From a virus, in the UHGV virus genome UHGV-1680239: a stretch of DNA of 53,635 nucleotides. One strand, 5' to 3'. This document shows positions 12,946 through 53,635 of the stretch, piece by piece. The notes under the pieces are model-generated. The model ran no database searches and was not told the origin of the DNA. It saw only the letters and a list, made by a program, of their open reading frames with translations. A program made the translations under genes and the position numbers. How positions within the stretch are numbered: position 1 is the stretch's first letter; the number at the start of each line of letters is the position of its first letter.

Positions 12946-13020
12946 GATGGTGTAGCTCAGCGGTAGAGCAGTTGGCTGTTAACCAACTGGTCGGTGGTTC
13001 GAATCCACCCACCATCGCCA
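12946..13020 (+). tRNA. tRNA-Asn (anticodon GTT)
   Basis: Hand-folded cloverleaf: acceptor GATGGTG/CACCATC, D-arm GCTC-AGCGGTA-GAGC, anticodon loop CTGTTAA, T-arm GGTGG-TTCGAAT-CCACC, encoded CCA. Confidence 0.85.
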
Positions 13021-13025
13021 ATTTA

Positions 13026-13112
13026 GGGGAGTTAGTCCGTAGGGGCAGCGGGGTAGACTGTAAATCTACTGTCATTGCGACTCGGGTGGTTCGACTCCAT
13101 CACTCCCCACCA
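13026..13112 (+). tRNA. tRNA-Tyr (anticodon GTA), long variable arm
   Basis: Acceptor GGGGAGT/ACTCCCC, anticodon stem-loop GTAGA-CTGTAAA-TCTAC, T-loop TTCGACT, encoded CCA; D-arm geometry slightly atypical. Confidence 0.75.
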
Positions 13113-13116
13113 AATT

Positions 13117-13192
13117 GCCGGTTTAGCTCAGTTGGTAGAGCGCCTGCCTTGTAAGCAGGATGTCAGCGGTTCGATCCCGTTAACCGGCACCA
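13117..13192 (+). tRNA. tRNA-Thr (anticodon TGT)
   Basis: Acceptor GCCGGTT/AACCGGC, D-arm GCTC...GAGC, anticodon loop CTTGTAA, T-loop TTCGATC, encoded CCA. Confidence 0.85.
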
Positions 13193-13278
13193 ACACAACA
13201 GGTAAGAGCATTGGGCGAATCGGCGATACTGACCCACAAGCCCGTAAATCGATAGAGTCAGACCAGTGCTCTTACCGT
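13193..13278 (+). repeat. long hairpin element B, abutting the 3' end of tRNA-Thr
   Basis: Arms CACAACAGGTAAGAGCA / TGCTCTTACCGTTGTG with one bulge. Confidence 0.5.
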
Positions 13279-13333
13279 TGTGAGGAAGTGCAGCTCTTTG
13301 AAGCAACCAGAAGATAAGCATCTGGCTTCACAA

Positions 13334-13412
13334 CACAACGATAAGATCATTACGGTTAATCGTCGTTCATGTGCACAATGACTGGTCGAAAGGTAGTGAT
13401 CTTACCGTTGTG
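13334..13412 (+). repeat. long hairpin element C
   Basis: Arms CACAACGATAAGATCA / TGATCTTACCGTTGTG with one mismatch. Confidence 0.5.
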
Positions 13413-13512
13413 ATGAATGCACAGGCTGATGTGCCGCAACTACAGTAGTGCGCGCTTTGCGGGGCTTGCTACAACCCTGTGTCGGAGTTCAGCACCGACC
13501 ATCACAATAGCT

Positions 13513-13599
13513 GGAGAGTAGGGAGCATGGTGCTCAAGCGGTCTTGAAAACCGTCCCATTGCGCAAGCGATGATGGTTCGATTCCATTACTCTCCGCCA
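13513..13599 (+). tRNA. tRNA-Ser (anticodon TGA), long variable arm
   Basis: Acceptor GGAGAGT/ACTCTCC, anticodon stem-loop GCGGT-CTTGAAA-ACCGT, T-arm GATGG-TTCGATT-CCATT, encoded CCA. Confidence 0.8.
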
Positions 13600-27667: not shown

Positions 27668-28612
27668 GTGAATTATCTCTTCGTAGATGGCAATAGCCTT
27701 GGTTATTACCACCAACAATCTGACAAATTGCACAACGGCGAAATGGAAGTACAGGCTGCTTTCGGCTTTGTTAAGAACGTCCGTCGTTATGCCTCCATCC
27801 TCCATGCCCGACCTATGATTCTTTGGGATGGATTTAGTGACAAGCGTCGCGACTTTTACCCGGACTACAAAGCAAATCGCGACGACGATCCTGATATGAA
27901 AAAGATGAAGGAAGGCTTTGCTATCCAGAAGCCATACATCCTCAAAATGATGACCGCGCTTGGAGTTACCCAACTCATTGCAAAAGATGCAGAAGCGGAT
28001 GATCTGGCCGGGCTGCTGGTAGCCAGCATTGCACCGCAGCCAATCGTTGAACACATCTATCTGTTAACAGGCGATAGCGACTGGCTTCAGTTAGTTCGCG
28101 AAAACGTAAGCTGGGTAAGCCTGCGCGAAGACGCCAAAAACAAGCAGGTTAATTTTGAGCAATTTGCGGAGCTGACAGGATTCGCTACTCCTCGCGCATT
28201 TTTGGAAGCAAAAGCATTACAAGGCGATAAATCGGACAACATTAGCGGTGTTGGTGGCATTGGTGCTGGCGGTGCGAAAGAGCTGCTGCATGAATGGGGA
28301 AGTGTCGCAACGATGGTACGCGGCATCAACGACGGCTCAATCGTGGTTAATAAAGGGCGTCATAAGACCGCCTTCAACAAACTAGCGAAGAATGCCTTCA
28401 ACGAGAAAACAGGCTGTCGAATGCTCGAAGCGTTCAAGAGAAACATCACGCTAATGAACCTGATTGAGACGAAGTTTCCGCCTACCGAAATCGAAACAAT
28501 CAAAGGCAATCGTGACGTGAAAGCATTCGAGCAACTGTGCTACGAGCTGAATTTCCGTTCGTTCCTTGAAGATCTTGAAGTGTTTGTTCTTCCATTCGAA
28601 AGGTATTGCTAA
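27668..28612 (+). CDS. 5'-3' exonuclease / flap endonuclease (FEN, RNase H-like)
   Basis: N-terminal YLFVDGNSLGYY and H3TH-like GVGGIGAGGAKELL; GTG 27668 with GGAAGGA RBS is preferred because the track start 27617 lies in the terminator. Confidence 0.75.
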   Translation: MNYLFVDGNSLGYYHQQSDKLHNGEMEVQAAFGFVKNVRRYASILHARPMILWDGFSDKRRDFYPDYKANRDDDPDMKKMKEGFAIQKPYILKMMTALGVTQLIAKDAEADDLAGLLVASIAPQPIVEHIYLLTGDSDWLQLVRENVSWVSLREDAKNKQVNFEQFAELTGFATPRAFLEAKALQGDKSDNISGVGGIGAGGAKELLHEWGSVATMVRGINDGSIVVNKGRHKTAFNKLAKNAFNEKTGCRMLEAFKRNITLMNLIETKFPPTEIETIKGNRDVKAFEQLCYELNFRSFLEDLEVFVLPFERYC

Positions 28613-28878
28613 TGCTTAAATCGATTATCAATGGCGCTACAACCACCCCTGCCCAACTGGCAAAAGAGATTGTCTTTTATCACGGTGAGTACGCTGTCAT
28701 CGCACTGCCGTCAATTCTAGGCGCTGCCGGAATGAAAGCGACAGATCGCGAGTTTGGATTAGTCAGCGAGCAGGTCGTAAAAATCCTCGCTCGTGTATCC
28801 AGACTCCTTAATCACGATGCGATTGTATTCGACGAATCCGCCGCTTTAAAACGAATCAACGAAACAAAAGGAGCCTGA
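28606..28878 (+). CDS. hypothetical protein
   Basis: 90-aa ORF between the FEN and recombinase genes. Confidence 0.4.
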   Translation: MLMLKSIINGATTTPAQLAKEIVFYHGEYAVIALPSILGAAGMKATDREFGLVSEQVVKILARVSRLLNHDAIVFDESAALKRINETKGA

Positions 28879-28880
28879 TC

Positions 28881-31220
28881 ATGGCAAAAGGAAAATCCGC
28901 ACTGGCACTTGCTCTGAAAAAGAAAATCGGTAGCAACGACGAAATTCAGAAAGTAACTCATTGGATTGACACAGGCTTTCCTCCGTTAAACAAAGCTATT
29001 TCCGGTCGTTACGATGGCGGTTTCCCATGTGGTCGTATCGTCGAAGTATTCGGGCCGCCAAGCGCGGGGAAATGTGTTACCGCAGACACCATGCTGCTGA
29101 CGGAGCGTGGAATGGTAACAGTGAAAGAGTTGTTTGAGATTGAAGGGTACAAAGCGACATGCACTACTCGCGATGTAGAGCATAACGTTGGACTCATCAA
29201 TGAAAATGGCGTGATAGAGAAGACCTCACACCTGACATGGAACAACCGTCGCAAATTCAAGCGTATTAAGCTGGCATCAGGCGGTTATATCGAGGCTACG
29301 TTCCGTCACCCAATCCGTGTGGTTGACGACTTAGGTAATGTCGTCTGGCGACATGCTGAAAAAATCAGTGTAGGCGACACGATTCCTTCAATGGTTGGCA
29401 CACATCAATTCGGCGATCAGCACCTGGATGCCAATATCGCAAAACTGATGGGCTATTTAATTGCTGACGGATACGTGGCCTCTGAAAATTCAGTGAATTT
29501 TTCTAACACAGATCCTTTCATCAAGGATGAGTACTACCGCCTCATTTCGCTGGTATCAGACAAGATGCCAGTTACGAGAAAACATAACGGCTCGGAAGAC
29601 CATGTGCTGTTTAGCAAAGAGGTGCGTTCGCTGCTTTTTAAAGAATATGGTCTGGAGTATGAGAAAGCTGCTGGCAAGCAGGTTCCGTTGAGTGTGCGTC
29701 GCGCCAATAGCGAGGCTCAAATTGCATTCCTTCGCGGCTACTTTGAGCTGGAATGCCACGTCAATGATGGTCGCTGCATTGAGGTTGTGAGCGCGAGTGG
29801 GCTGCTGCTACAGCAAATTCGCCTCATGCTCCTGAATCTGGGGATTACGTCAACTGTCTCTGAAAAACACGTCGCGGGTTATGAAAATACATATTACCGG
29901 CTGTCATTCAGTGGCTCTAATTACGACCTTTTTCTGTCAACGATTGGTTTCGAATCTCCGGCACGTTTATCAGTGGCAACCAAACGGGACATTGGTTTTG
30001 ACCGCACTTACTCAGGCTATGTTCCGCACATCAGCGGCTTAGTGAAATCACTCTACGAGTCGCTCACCAAGACCACCCGTGAAGACTACGCTCTGGTAGA
30101 CCACGTTATTGGCCGCGGCGATCGTGTCGGAATAGACAAACTGCGAGAAATCTATGTCTCCTTCATTGGCAGAAAGAATCGTTTTAACGAGCATCTGTTT
30201 GCAGAACTGGCAGCGGTAATTGGCTCTAACTTGTTCTACGACGAAGTCGTGGCTATTGAGGAAGGTGAAGCACCAACGTTCGACGTAGCGATGCCGGAAA
30301 CACACTCTTTCTGGTCTAACGGGATTATCAGCCACAACACATTCCTTGCAACAGCAGCAATGATCTCCGCACAGAAACAAGATGGTCTGGCGGTATTCCT
30401 CGATCATGAGAACAGTTTTGACGTTGGCCTGGCTGTAGCCAATGGCCTGAACGCAGATGAGGATGACGGTCAGTGGGTATACAAGCAGCCAGATACCTTC
30501 GAAGACTCTGTAGAGTTGATCGGCACAATACTTAAATTGGTTCGTGATGAAGAGCTTATCCCCGAATCAGCACCTATCTGTATCGTGGCTGACTCTCTTG
30601 CGTCTATGGTTCCGAACTCCAAAGCCGAGAAGTTCGAAAAGATGGCTGAAGGCACTGCCAAAGACAAAGATCAGCTAAACATGAACGACAATACGGCACT
30701 GGCTCGTGCGACGAGTGCGAACTTCCCTACTCTGGCTTTGTGGGCACGCAAATACAACGCCTGCATCATCTTCTTGAATCAGGTTCGCACAAAAATCGGT
30801 GTAATGTTTGGCGACCCTACTACGTCGCCAGGTGGAGATTCACCGAAGTTCTACGCTTCTGTACGTATCCGTCTTGGTGCATCGGTGATGAAGGATGGTA
30901 AAGAGAAGATCGGCCAGGACGTAGGCGCAGAATGCATCAAAAACAAAGTTGCACCACCGTATGGCAAATGCACCTGGAAATTCTACTTCGATCCTACTCG
31001 TGGCCTCGACGTTATCGAATCGCTCGTCGAGTACATGCTGGAAGAAGGATACCTGCCAAAGAACGCCAGCGGGCGAGTTGAAATTGGTGACAAGAAATAC
31101 ACCAAATCGCAGATCGTCGAGATGTATCGGGAGAAGCCACTGGCTGAAATCATTGCGGCTTTGCAGGCAATCGACGACCGAAGAGCAAAAGACAACCCCA
31201 CCGAGTCAGTAGAAGAGTAA
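28881..31220 (+). CDS. RecA/UvsX-like recombinase precursor interrupted by an intein
   Basis: Exteins join as GPPSAGK|TFLATAA...; RecA-like FLNQVRTKIGVMFGDPTTSPGGDSPKFYASVRIRLG; 779 aa total, about 357 aa without the intein. Confidence 0.8.
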   Translation: MAKGKSALALALKKKIGSNDEIQKVTHWIDTGFPPLNKAISGRYDGGFPCGRIVEVFGPPSAGKCVTADTMLLTERGMVTVKELFEIEGYKATCTTRDVEHNVGLINENGVIEKTSHLTWNNRRKFKRIKLASGGYIEATFRHPIRVVDDLGNVVWRHAEKISVGDTIPSMVGTHQFGDQHLDANIAKLMGYLIADGYVASENSVNFSNTDPFIKDEYYRLISLVSDKMPVTRKHNGSEDHVLFSKEVRSLLFKEYGLEYEKAAGKQVPLSVRRANSEAQIAFLRGYFELECHVNDGRCIEVVSASGLLLQQIRLMLLNLGITSTVSEKHVAGYENTYYRLSFSGSNYDLFLSTIGFESPARLSVATKRDIGFDRTYSGYVPHISGLVKSLYESLTKTTREDYALVDHVIGRGDRVGIDKLREIYVSFIGRKNRFNEHLFAELAAVIGSNLFYDEVVAIEEGEAPTFDVAMPETHSFWSNGIISHNTFLATAAMISAQKQDGLAVFLDHENSFDVGLAVANGLNADEDDGQWVYKQPDTFEDSVELIGTILKLVRDEELIPESAPICIVADSLASMVPNSKAEKFEKMAEGTAKDKDQLNMNDNTALARATSANFPTLALWARKYNACIIFLNQVRTKIGVMFGDPTTSPGGDSPKFYASVRIRLGASVMKDGKEKIGQDVGAECIKNKVAPPYGKCTWKFYFDPTRGLDVIESLVEYMLEEGYLPKNASGRVEIGDKKYTKSQIVEMYREKPLAEIIAALQAIDDRRAKDNPTESVEE
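29073..30338 (+). mobile_element. intein (422 aa) with LAGLIDADG homing-endonuclease domain, inserted in the P-loop
   Basis: Begins with Cys after GPPSAGK, ends ...IISHN followed by Thr; LAGLIDADG-like blocks KLMGYLIADGY and FLRGYFELECHV. Confidence 0.75.
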
Positions 31221-51273: not shown

Positions 51274-51867
51274 ATGATTGCAGCCGAAAAAATCAAACAG
51301 CGAAAGCGCGACAACTCTCTTCGTGACCTCTGGAGAACACCTGACTGGCTGTTTTCTGCCATTCAACGTTATCTTGGGGTGACATTTGATGTTGACGTTG
51401 CCTGCAACAAGGACAATGCAAAGCTGCCTAATTTCATAGGCGTTGAGCGTGATGCTTTGAAATCTGAATGGGGACAGCCAGGTACAATTGCCTTCCTCAA
51501 TCCCCCCTACTCCAAAATCTCCCCCTGGATTGATGCGGCTATACGTGAGCAGGCTCGCGGAGTTACAACAGTGATGCTAATTCCTCAATCCCTAGATACA
51601 AAGTGGTATGAGCGTGCAACAGAGTGTGCGAATGAGACGATTATTCTGTCTGGTGGCCGCGTAGCGTTTGTCGAGCCTGACGTCAATCTGGGTCAGGTAG
51701 AAGTAAACATCAACCCAGGTGGCAGTATGCTCGTTGTTTTTCGAGGATTCTGTCAGGACGCTGGGCACTCTATAAGCAAGATCCCTTTGGACGTCATGAA
51801 AAGTCTGGGAGGGTATGATCCTGCGAATGTGATCAGGAAAAAAAGACCATCAAAGAAGGCTGCTTAG
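51274..51867 (+). CDS. phage-type DNA N6-adenine methyltransferase (Dam-like)
   Basis: Catalytic NPPY within FLNPPYS; N-terminal WRTPDWLF typical of small phage Dam-family enzymes. Confidence 0.8.
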   Translation: MIAAEKIKQRKRDNSLRDLWRTPDWLFSAIQRYLGVTFDVDVACNKDNAKLPNFIGVERDALKSEWGQPGTIAFLNPPYSKISPWIDAAIREQARGVTTVMLIPQSLDTKWYERATECANETIILSGGRVAFVEPDVNLGQVEVNINPGGSMLVVFRGFCQDAGHSISKIPLDVMKSLGGYDPANVIRKKRPSKKAA

Positions 51868-51888
51868 TTTGTTCTGGCGTCTGTAATT

Positions 51889-51947
51889 AGCCTGCTTCTG
51901 TATATATAAATAACTACATATTAATTATTAATATACGGAAGCAGGCT
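51889..51947. repeat. palindromic element, copy 2 of 2
   Basis: AGCCTGCTTCTGTATATATAAATAA...ATATACGGAAGCAGGCT; shares stem and left flank (CTGG(G)CGTCT) with the element at 5251-5305. Confidence 0.7.
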
Positions 51948-52028
51948 GTTTTGTATCAGAGACTCCAGACCTGAACATCACTACAGAATCCACTAGAACC
52001 CCTTCCCAGACGCTTTAAAATCGATTTT

Positions 52029-52283
52029 ATGAATCACTTTAAGGAAACTAACATGTCATACCCGACTAATGTCGTTGCGCTCGTAGAGAGCGATTTTCTG
52101 GCCCAGGCCCGTGAAATGATGAAAGATCGCGAGCAGGCTTTCAACTTGTACGAATGGGCAATTAAGTGCTTGCATCTTGGGGAGCATCGCGAACTTGTTG
52201 AACAGCTTTTAGGTGAGTTGATTAACGAGGTGTTTGCCTTGAATGTTCAACTACATGGTCGAGAAAATAATCAATCGAAATGA
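52029..52283 (+). CDS. hypothetical small protein
   Basis: 84-aa ORF (internal ATG at 52053 is also possible). Confidence 0.4.
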   Translation: MNHFKETNMSYPTNVVALVESDFLAQAREMMKDREQAFNLYEWAIKCLHLGEHRELVEQLLGELINEVFALNVQLHGRENNQSK

Positions 52284-52868
52284 TAGATAAGTACAAACTA
52301 TTCATAAAGTGAATTGTAAGTGCTAAGATCTGATAGTTTCCAGTCGTAGACTGGAGACTCGACCTGATGGGTGGGGGATAGCGTCACTGGCGTCAGGTTT
52401 AAAAAAGCTCACTACCAGCGTAGAACCGGCACCGTTTAGGGGTTGGGGAAGGGGGAACCAAAGTGGGCAGAGAGAAGGGTCACTTTATGATTGTCGAGTC
52501 TGGAGTGTTTAGAGAGGTTGAATCCAGTGCTCCCCTTCATAAAGTGTGGGAAGATCTCGGTTCTGGGGTGCTGTCATCCATAACTTCCCAAGTCTAAGCT
52601 GGCAGTAGACTTAGGCCATAACTTTTCAGGTTATGAAACGACCAGGTTGGTGAGGGATTTTTATACTCACCTCCCTGGGAGAGTATTACCTGAAAAGACA
52701 ACCTCTCACTTCGTTCGAGGTGAACTTCACTCACTTCGTTCGTTCAGTTCAGGTTTATAAAAACCTGTTCTGGGAAGTAATTTGTTTATTTTAATAATTA
52801 TTAACACGCACGCGTGTGCGCACGCGCGAGGAAAAAAAATCGGCGCGGCGCTTGATTCAGGAGTTTAT
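52284..52868 (+). other. ORF-free, GC-richer structured region (candidate non-coding RNA locus)
   Basis: No ORF of 60 aa or more on either strand across about 580 bp; several local and long-range complementarities, G-tracts, and an alternating purine-pyrimidine palindrome. Confidence 0.3.
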
Positions 52869-53462
52869 ATGACGACGAAGACACCAGCCCGATCGCAAGC
52901 AAAAACTCGCAAAAAAGCCAAAAACAAAAATTCTCCCCGCACCAATTACACAACGCCTGTCGTAGAGTTCAATCCCCAGCTTAAAACCGTGAAAATCTTC
53001 AGTGATGGATCTTGCCTTAAAAATCCGGGTGGCCCGGGCGGTTACGGTATCGTTCTTCAGTATCGTGGAGAGGAACGCGAGTTCTCAGATGGTTTTCATA
53101 GCACCACCAATAACCGCATGGAGATGATGGGGGCACTTATCGGGCTGGAGCGTTTGAAATATCCATGCAACGTTATTTTACACTCTGATAGCCAGTATCT
53201 GAAAAACGGCATGACACTGTGGATGAAATGGTGGAAACGCAATGGATGGATGACTTCTGACAAAAAACCGGTAAAGAATGTTGATCTGTGGAAGCGTCTG
53301 GATGAGGCTGCAAGTCGACATAATGTTCGCTGGAAGTGGGTTAAAGGTCACGCCGGGCATCGTGAAAATGAAATATGTGATCGACTCGCGAAGATCGCAG
53401 CTTTTTCCGCAGCAGATATGCCTCACAAGAAAGATATTGGTTTTGTTTACAACAAACGGTAG
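52869..53462 (+). CDS. rnhA: ribonuclease HI with Lys-rich N-terminal extension
   Basis: [37 protein letters not shown] and [16 protein letters not shown] match RNase HI catalytic blocks; AGGAG RBS before ATG 52869 (track start 52782 is too far upstream). Confidence 0.85.
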
Positions 53463-53635
53463 GTAAGTGTTTACCTATCATTTTAAATCATGTATCTTAT
53501 CGGCGTCAGGATGACAATGTGTCGGTAAGACACAGTTCCAGGATGGAACGAGAAAGGCGGGGGGGGGGTTTCCCCCCCCAAACTTTTTTCCCCCGGGGGG
53601 GGGGGCCACACCCCCAGCAAACAACTCTTCCTTCC

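Follow-up and report, generated by a model that had tools for sequence, protein, structure and literature searches.

We examined positions 52284-52868 of UHGV-1680239, a 53,635-nt stretch of viral DNA (hereafter the window, whose numbering gives all coordinates below), and lean towards reading this interval as an independent plus-strand gene for a highly structured non-coding RNA (ncRNA) of ~460 nt, termed type A, which would end at a U-rich tract and act in trans as a folded RNA or ribonucleoprotein (RNP). The unit comprises a conserved extended -10 promoter overlapping a phage-wide operator-like palindrome, then a 5' stem-loop and a multi-domain core that long-range helices close, and it finishes with a U-rich tract; the transcript would stop before the downstream RNase HI gene (rnhA). 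The generic hallmarks of a structured ncRNA gene are all present, namely conservation, compensatory changes, strand asymmetry, a conserved promoter with a 5' hairpin, and an accumulating, already published transcript, and no open reading frame (ORF) is conserved. An RNA product had been suggested earlier from the letters alone (the original prediction), and this suggestion stands, as neither of the observations named as contradicting it, a conserved small protein gene or a missing transcript, was made. Comparison across relatives shows that selection keeps the RNA fold and not a peptide. Over 52000-53000, the window shares 97% identity with Escherichia phages Cyrano, PhiR41_1, and CMS-2020a, 83% with Salmonella phage SSU5, and ~78% with Klebsiella phage-plasmids. 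These matches make it part of a phage-plasmid of the SSU5 supercommunity and, under the type names of PMC12977533, of the E. coli (pSLy3) type.

The interval folds better than its shuffles on both strands (z = -5.7 on plus, -5.5 on minus), and comparative folding, a check suggested alongside the original prediction, revealed a multi-helix fold kept by compensatory changes above both shuffled and slid controls. Across 50 distinct close sequences, RNAalifold predicted 128 pairs in 17 helices, with standard pairs in 99.6% of cells and 66 double-change cells, compared to 17.8 in column shuffles (none of 500 reached this count) and no more than 5 after moving partners by 1-3 columns. Among 11 more diverse sequences, 30 of the 104 predicted pairs displayed double changes, against 11.8 +/- 2.5 in shuffles (0/500) and 2-4 in slid controls. 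The same structure is 99.6% paired when read on the plus strand and 88.0% on the minus strand, with 744 G.U cells vs 3 A.C cells, and G.U predominates in 16 of the 128 pairs. This identifies the plus-strand RNA, rather than duplex DNA, as the functional molecule. The core and its best-supported helices, all on the plus strand, are as follows.

52358-52781, plus strand: conserved multi-helix core, defined by conservation, covariation, and strand asymmetry
52361-52399, plus strand: core helix (hairpin)
52407-52412 with 52463-52468, plus strand: core helix
52426-52433 with 52439-52446, plus strand: core helix
52512-52520 with 52699-52707, plus strand: long-range core helix
52547-52553 with 52584-52590, plus strand: core helix
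52566-52570 with 52575-52579, plus strand: core helix
52592-52601 with 52606-52616, plus strand: core helix with six co-varying pairs
52642-52654 with 52666-52678, plus strand: core helix
52745-52772, plus strand: 3' hairpin

In two divergent relatives (L253 and L255, L numbers being our locus labels), direct reading indicated that the stems of sub-domain 52547-52616 differ again in sequence and stay complementary. A covariance model built from the best-conserved sub-domain (R1, 52543-52636) recovers every type A member at E of ~1e-15 or lower, including L253 and L255 at ~1e-15 to 1e-16. This pattern bears directly on whether the interval could be a DNA-level element, i.e. a cluster of protein sites, an origin, or a packaging site, with inverted repeats acting as DNA and transcription being incidental. 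Such an element would fit the very high conservation of apparently unpaired stretches, the nearby operator palindrome, and an exact 13-bp direct repeat whose copies lie 25 bp apart (CTCACTTCGTTCG, 52705-52717 and 52730-52742; the short repeat already noticed in the first reading). However, the G.U/A.C asymmetry is not expected of a double-stranded site or a cruciform, the compensatory changes preserve pairing and not sequence, and a transcript accumulates. Because of the asymmetry above all, we consider a DNA site highly improbable.

Other structural claims made for the interval fared differently. It had been called visibly richer in GC than its flanks, and a moderate difference does exist (GC 0.49-0.50 over 52300-52600 vs 0.37-0.46 in the flanks), along with a strongly positive GC skew. 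Complementarity had been reported between 52355-52364 and 52493-52502 and is indeed present (52350-52363 with 52493-52506), but a conserved function for it is unsupported: the first arm lies mostly inside a lineage-variable 5' hairpin, and the conserved CTCGAC/GTCGAG parts read CTCGGC/GTCGAA in L251 and CTCGGT/GTCGAC in L253, without co-variation. Quadruplex potential, proposed for G-tracts at 52439-52470, was rejected, as most E. coli relatives lack an intact four-G-run motif (reading GGTG, GTGAGC) and these positions belong to a helix with wobble and compensatory changes.

We confirmed that neither strand of the interval has an ORF reaching 60 aa; the longest internal ones measure 44-46 aa. 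Below this size, a search for a conserved protein found none, and ORFs of 22-46 aa are all frameshifted or stopped in some lineage. This includes the 44-aa ORF at 52463-52597, annotated in Cyrano as CYRAN_81 and listed there as an expressed "moron", which a frameshift disrupts in the Klebsiella group (L062 and others) and in L069/L068, L034, and L014, and a stop codon in L072, even though nucleotide identity stays at ~90%. The single small ORF intact in all sequences is a 20-aa GTG ORF (52546-52608), which is not hydrophobic and is uninformative because it lies inside an almost invariant stretch (~99% conserved). Likewise, no conserved hydrophobic toxin ORF was found in the interval when considering a type I toxin-antitoxin mRNA (hok/sok-like). 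Since the candidate ORFs are broken, a small-protein gene, whether CYRAN_81, another short ORF, or a toxin-like mRNA, is barely credible, despite the existing annotation. The CYRAN_81 coding sequence call (OV696614 78657-78791) thus lies inside the RNA and is probably wrong.

Published RNA-seq of the LF82/Cyrano lysogen, whose phage is 97% identical over 52000-53000, provides the transcript. In LB, CYRAN_81 is one of the "morons" whose expression exceeds the Cyrano background 12-fold (PMC9928086, Table 1 and Table S1), with log2 values of 6.8-6.9 (LB), 9.0-9.3 (B1), 8.2-9.0 (MB1), and 10.3 (macrophage, 6 h), while the neighbouring CYRAN_80 and RNase H gene reach 3.1-5.8 and 2.6-5.0 (PMC9928086). 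This spot is hence found at 12-40 times its neighbours, with rnhA reads at background, and the core transcript therefore accumulates independently of both flanking genes.

Further features around the core, and the palindrome cores located across the window, are as follows.

52285-52306, no strand assigned: candidate operator, a degenerate copy of a 22-bp palindrome (consensus GATAGGTAAGTnnTTACCTATC) overlapping the -35
52301-52329, plus strand: sigma-70 extended -10 promoter, with -35 TTCATA at 52301-52306, a 17-nt spacer, TG at 52321-52322, and -10 TAAGAT at 52324-52329
52335-52359, plus strand: 5'-terminal stem-loop of 11 bp at the predicted start, -14.8 kcal/mol
52781-52795, plus strand: U-rich tract, following the last helix and the invariant CTGGGAAGTAA (52770-52780)
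52805-52851, plus strand: alternating-CG block and A-run element, with GCGCGAGG at 52824-52831, the A-run at 52832-52839, and GGCGCGGCGC at 52842-52851
644, 5394, 12177, 17227, 19887, 26478, 26717, 37017, 41701, 46411, 51246, and 53462: 14-bp palindrome cores

The promoter hexamers, TG, and 17-nt spacing are kept in all lineages, including L251, L253, L255, L257, and the type B loci described below, amid diverged surroundings; variants read TTCATA, TTTAAA, or TTTACn at -35 and TAAGAT, TAAAAT, TAGAAT, TACAAT, or TAACAT at -10. This promoter scores under the threshold of a simple consensus promoter scan. Transcription is predicted to start at ~52335-52337, at the foot of the 5' stem-loop. A tight hairpin had been placed at 52340-52354 in the original prediction; it exists and is larger than stated, with 11 bp formed by 52335-52345 and 52349-52359. 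Its sequence is different in every lineage, and 14 of the 14 versions tested fold, at -6 to -17 kcal/mol. At the other end, all close lineages show a U-rich run after GGGAAGTAA; this run is probably the 3' end or a weak intrinsic terminator. On this sequence evidence, the conserved unit is ~460 nt long, from 52335 to ~52795, and is accompanied by a separate GC/A-run element (52805-52851).

The palindrome overlapping the -35 belongs to a set whose core has 13 copies in the window vs 1.3 expected, all intergenic and ~23 nt upstream of an extended -10. At the RNA promoter, the SSU5, Enterobacter, and Klebsiella lineages retain an intact copy (GGTAAGTACTTACC), while that of the E. coli lineage is degenerate. 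The copies appear to form an operator/promoter family dispersed through these phage-plasmids, for which the scattered C1 operators of P1 offer a comparison. Judging from the operator, the RNA would in most lineages be part of a repressor-controlled early programme, and the operator's degeneration in the E. coli lineage would explain expression in the lysogen.

The interval was found by blastn in 687 PLSDB plasmids from Klebsiella, Escherichia, Enterobacter, Salmonella, Citrobacter, and Cronobacter, nearly all of them non-mobilisable and ~105-120 kb in size, as well as in 232 of 5,426 complete E. coli genomes (~4%), where no RefSeq annotation lies beneath it. Across 62 distinct IMG/VR loci, mean pairwise identity over ~52360-52760 is 0.92-1.0, vs 0.80-0.87 for the 76-aa gene upstream and rnhA, and this conservation begins abruptly at CTCGACC (52358). 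Nucleotides are almost entirely constant, loops and apparently unpaired stretches included, which sequence-specific recognition would explain. Using the upstream 76-aa protein as an anchor, we also recovered divergent type A members with anchor proteins 56-80% identical (L257, L251/252/258/259, L253, L255/256, L260, and L261), which nhmmer assigned to the same RNA family at E values from 1e-168 to 1e-4.

The locus lies inside a long co-directional gene block for nucleotide metabolism and replication, in the order thymidylate synthase, dihydrofolate reductase (DHFR), ATPase, DnaQ-like exonuclease, Dam methylase, 76-aa gene, gap, and RNase HI. The two genes that border the RNA are listed below.

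52053-52283, plus strand: 76-aa anchor gene (phrog_5343), immediately upstream of the RNA
52869-53462, plus strand: rnhA, RNase HI with a basic N-terminal extension (Pfam RNase_H, E = 7.5e-44)

A structured RNA begins ~70 nt past the stop codon of the 76-aa gene in 80 of the 80 IMG/VR loci encoding this protein, and the same layout was observed in 9 further, more divergent contigs. The upstream gene stop codon is conserved, and rnhA starts from its own Shine-Dalgarno (SD) sequence and ATG at 52869, a 226-aa TTG ORF from 52782 being a mere upstream extension of rnhA. In SSU5 (NC_018843 79147-79911), the RNase H gene SSU5_090 is annotated from a start ~150 nt upstream of this conserved SD/ATG, crossing the CG block, which is probably wrong. 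While rnhA is the usual gene 3' of the RNA, it is not obligatory, being absent or replaced in three type A loci: L251 carries an unrelated 200-aa gene, L258 a Tad2-like gene, and L261 (Buttiauxella) a truncated start of rnhA and then a UvrD-like gene on the reverse strand. Phages with distant RNase H genes display no comparable gap, and a scan of genome contigs with the RNase H protein was dominated by chromosomal rnhA genes and returned no phage-plasmid locus. From these comparisons, the RNA is inherited with the upstream 76-aa gene and not tied to rnhA. As a side observation, a Tad2-like (anti-Thoeris) gene is found directly or closely downstream of the RNA in both L251 (4105-4416) and L258 (2432-2743), which could make the stretch following the RNA a region of variable accessory or anti-defence genes.

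These neighbourhoods also weigh on a cis-acting interpretation, in which the RNA would be a leader or attenuator controlling read-through into rnhA and later early genes via alternative pairings, with most lysogen transcripts stopping at the U-tract. The shared orientation with rnhA, for which no separate promoter was recognised, is compatible with this idea, as are the high leader and low gene reads, which match premature termination. The fold itself is partly ambiguous, since ~52617-52636 can adopt two mutually exclusive pairings, each with one compensatory change, and the TGGGAAG motif is duplicated in the interval. A terminator switch pairing CTTCCCA with the downstream TGGGAAG copy was nonetheless rejected, as L251 and L258 fail to support it. 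More generally, a co-directional downstream gene, as expected for a riboswitch or attenuator leader, is not universal among these loci: those whose next gene lies on the opposite strand (L261, and the type B loci L167 and L170) or is unrelated (L251, L258) retain the RNA together with compensatory changes. With ~460 nt and at least 15 helices, it also goes far beyond known leaders. Because the RNA persists without a co-directional gene downstream, we regard a cis-acting leader as improbable.

In pCAV-type Klebsiella phage-plasmids, where the anchor protein is 50% and rnhA 52% identical, the homologous locus is occupied by a different structured RNA of ~480 nt, termed type B. It is found at L164:3385-3863 (Klebsiella plasmid CP110724), and also in L165-L170, L243-L249, and L262; in L167 and L170, rnhA is absent downstream and replaced by a reverse-strand gene. 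The layout is alike, with a homologous promoter, a 5' hairpin, and ~480 nt free of ORFs, and the fold has z = -6.5, with 11 compensatory pairs among 148 predicted from only 7 sequences. Homology between the two types was rejected, as nhmmer found no type A/type B match and R1, which covers one type A sub-domain, hit no type B locus at E <= 10. Extending from this, we tentatively propose that these phage-plasmids hold an RNA slot behind the 76-aa gene and an operator-controlled promoter, possibly filled by at least two non-homologous, ornate RNAs of ~460-480 nt, each of which might form a particle with its co-evolving small protein and fulfil a function for which no RNA has been described in these elements, e.g. 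switching copy number or lytic replication under repressor control, or serving as a decoy for host defence.

The main competing explanation is that the interval is an RNA-primed replication origin. ColE1/pMB1 RNA II is a pre-primer processed by RNase H, and by analogy, read-through of the AT-rich spacer would form a persistent hybrid at the GC block, where cleavage by phage or host RNase HI at GCGCGAGG/A-run would prime DNA synthesis, while the promoter operator would gate the origin to induction. Like RNA II, type A is a structured transcript with its own promoter, a conserved fold, and a G-rich 5' half, measuring ~500 nt from its predicted start to the A-run. It is part of a replication and nucleotide-metabolism module, adjoins an RNase H gene in most lineages, and has an operator-linked promoter. 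Downstream, GCGCGAG[GA] and an A-rich run are located 30-60 nt past the U-tract in type A loci except the most divergent ones (L255/L256); in the window, the motif lies within an alternating-CG block (52805-52831). The motif is unique in the window and is kept whatever gene follows, including where this is not rnhA (L251, L258). With its purine run, GCGCGAG[GA] resembles the ColE1 RNA/DNA switch (GGAAAAACGCC). The A-run (52832-52839) varies from 6 to 10 nt among near-identical E. coli plasmids, which could reflect slippage or a sequencing artefact. A copy number of 5.5 for Cyrano would also suit an origin, as would the precedent of mycobacteriophages lacking RepA, in which non-coding, lysogen-expressed regions are necessary and sufficient for replication (PMC7157519).

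However, these plasmids already include an IncFIB RepA replicon, a U-rich, terminator-like tract separates the core from the proposed switch, and no sequence or Rfam similarity to ColE1 RNAs was detected. A consensus scan, which is weak evidence, revealed no RNA I-like antisense promoter on the minus strand within 52335-52500, and the only nearby minus-strand call (52342 to 52313) reads away from the RNA. In addition, cumulative GC skew displays no turn at the locus, and rnhA is dispensable in some lineages. An origin would explain the downstream GC/A-run motif, the adjacent RNase H gene, and the operator control in one model, and a replication role is accordingly a candidate by analogy to RNA II, yet on this evidence we judge it unlikely. 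The mycobacteriophage origins are similar in being non-coding regions of plasmid-living phages that are transcribed in the lysogen and differ in version between phages (Wetzel et al. 2020, PMC7157519), but they lie beside parABS, replace repA, and have been shown to drive replication, whereas the type A locus co-occurs with repA in an early DNA-metabolism block, and its hosts and sequences are unrelated.

Returning to the trans-acting RNA that we favour, the co-inherited 76-aa protein would be the first candidate partner. PHROGs assigns it to phrog_5343 (function class unknown), Pfam returned no match, and an AlphaFold2 model predicts three helices (pLDDT 83), for which neither a significant fold match in the PDB nor a resemblance to Rop was detected. 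Several observations weigh against a separate gene acting in trans. The structural searches returned no informative fold match for the proposed partner, and the 76-aa gene is poorly expressed in the lysogen. A search of 88 kb of phage sequence for antisense targets of at least 12 nt found none, its longest matches being 11-mers attributable to chance. The U-tract departs from a canonical terminator and was not called by a terminator scan, and the conserved GCGCGAGG/A-run beyond it is unexplained by a simple trans-acting RNA. Sequence reading of 52782-52868 combined with the consensus scan revealed no evident promoter between the RNA and rnhA, so that rnhA would be reached by read-through, which blurs the distinction between a separate gene and a leader. 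Finally, the Cyrano RNA-seq table states neither strand nor transcript ends (PMC9928086).

The RNA matches none of the 4,227 models of Rfam 15, including ROOL, GOLLD, OLE, HEARO, RNase P, tmRNA, 6S, group I/II introns, CsrB, and RNAI: at gathering thresholds, a scan of the window returned 3 tRNAs only, a scan of 51850-53000 at E <= 10 yielded microRNA-type noise only, and the divergent members and type B had no match either. The element thus fits no curated family. A retron had been considered unsupported in the original prediction, which we corroborate: a Pfam scan of the flanking genes, which encode Dam, the 76-aa protein, and RNase HI, revealed no reverse transcriptase among them, and no Rfam retron matched. 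The "Reverse Transcriptase 3" in the product name of CYRAN_82 appears to refer to its RNase H-like domain, as Pfam found RNase_H and no other domain in the homologous window protein. A self-splicing group I/II intron found no support in either an interrupted coding sequence or an Rfam intron match. A CsrA sponge was also considered from the few GGA motifs seen by eye in loops and set aside, the evidence being too weak. No prior description was found in PMC/bioRxiv for SSU5, pHCM2, or phage-plasmids combined with ncRNA, small RNA, or structured RNA, nor in two genome-wide ncRNA surveys, with Breaker-laboratory surveys included in this literature search. We rate the RNA as a new family within a known kind, the large structured phage-borne RNAs. 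Unusually, it is tightly paired with a gene for a small protein, and a non-homologous counterpart occupies its locus in some relatives.

Among known systems, the pRNA of the phi29 family (~120-174 nt, at the genome end) is likewise a phage structural RNA with its own early promoter, whose role is kept amid strong sequence divergence, but here two apparently non-homologous folds (types A and B) are found and no link to packaging genes was seen. Type A resembles ROOL, GOLLD, and OLE in spanning several hundred nucleotides with many helices and long-range closure, in the extreme conservation of unpaired nucleotides, and in being phage- or prophage-borne with a function not deducible from sequence (PMC12286853). 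It differs from them by matching none of their Rfam models, by its hosts (Enterobacteriaceae phage-plasmids as opposed to Firmicutes or rumen and lake metagenomes), by its location ~39 kb from tRNA genes, and by its constant pairing with a 76-aa gene. The P1 c4 RNA and the small processed RNA of N15 are also phage-plasmid ncRNAs expressed in the lysogen in type-specific versions, yet these measure ~70-100 nt and pair with a nearby target (cited in PMC7969092), whereas type A is ~460 nt long and has no such target in 88 kb.

Large structured ncRNAs of unknown function are rare, and most are found in organisms that are hard to work with. The carriers here are phage-plasmids of E. coli, Klebsiella, Salmonella, and Enterobacter, which are amenable to genetics and of clinical relevance, as SSU5-type elements carry resistance genes. 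Given the cultured PhiR41_1 (on MG1655), the studied LF82/Cyrano lysogen, and natural variants with a non-homologous replacement or without rnhA, the function of the RNA is directly testable. If an RNA-primed origin were true, it would reveal the way in which a phage-plasmid passes from replicating as a low-copy plasmid to amplifying lytically; if an RNP or decoy were, it would represent a new class in phage RNA biology. As annotation pipelines currently leave the RNA blank or call a protein, the family merits a curated covariance model and correction of both CYRAN_81 and the extended SSU5_090 start.

Some observations concern the surrounding genome. The tRNA island of the window (12946-13599) encodes Asn(GTT), Tyr(GTA), Thr(TGT), and Ser(TGA), with ARAGORN detecting 4/4 and Rfam 3/4 at its gathering threshold. 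In PhiR41_1 (L263), a full-length gene annotated as methionyl-tRNA synthetase is located ~14 kb downstream of the RNA (28059-30092). The last ~75 bases of the window (53561-53635) are a homopolymer-stuttered artefact, the true sequence in PhiR41_1 and Cyrano being GGCGGCTGGCAATCGCCAGCCGCAACTCTTT, and at least three IMG/VR contigs (L011, L026, L033) likewise end within ~200 nt past rnhA. Between rnhA and this artefact (53476-53560), an intact operator palindrome and a TGTATCTTAT -10 are followed by a conserved leader of ~90 nt, which in relatives terminates with a GC hairpin of 9 bp. In L258, the RNA is followed by a comparable leader, and this sequence may be another small structured element.

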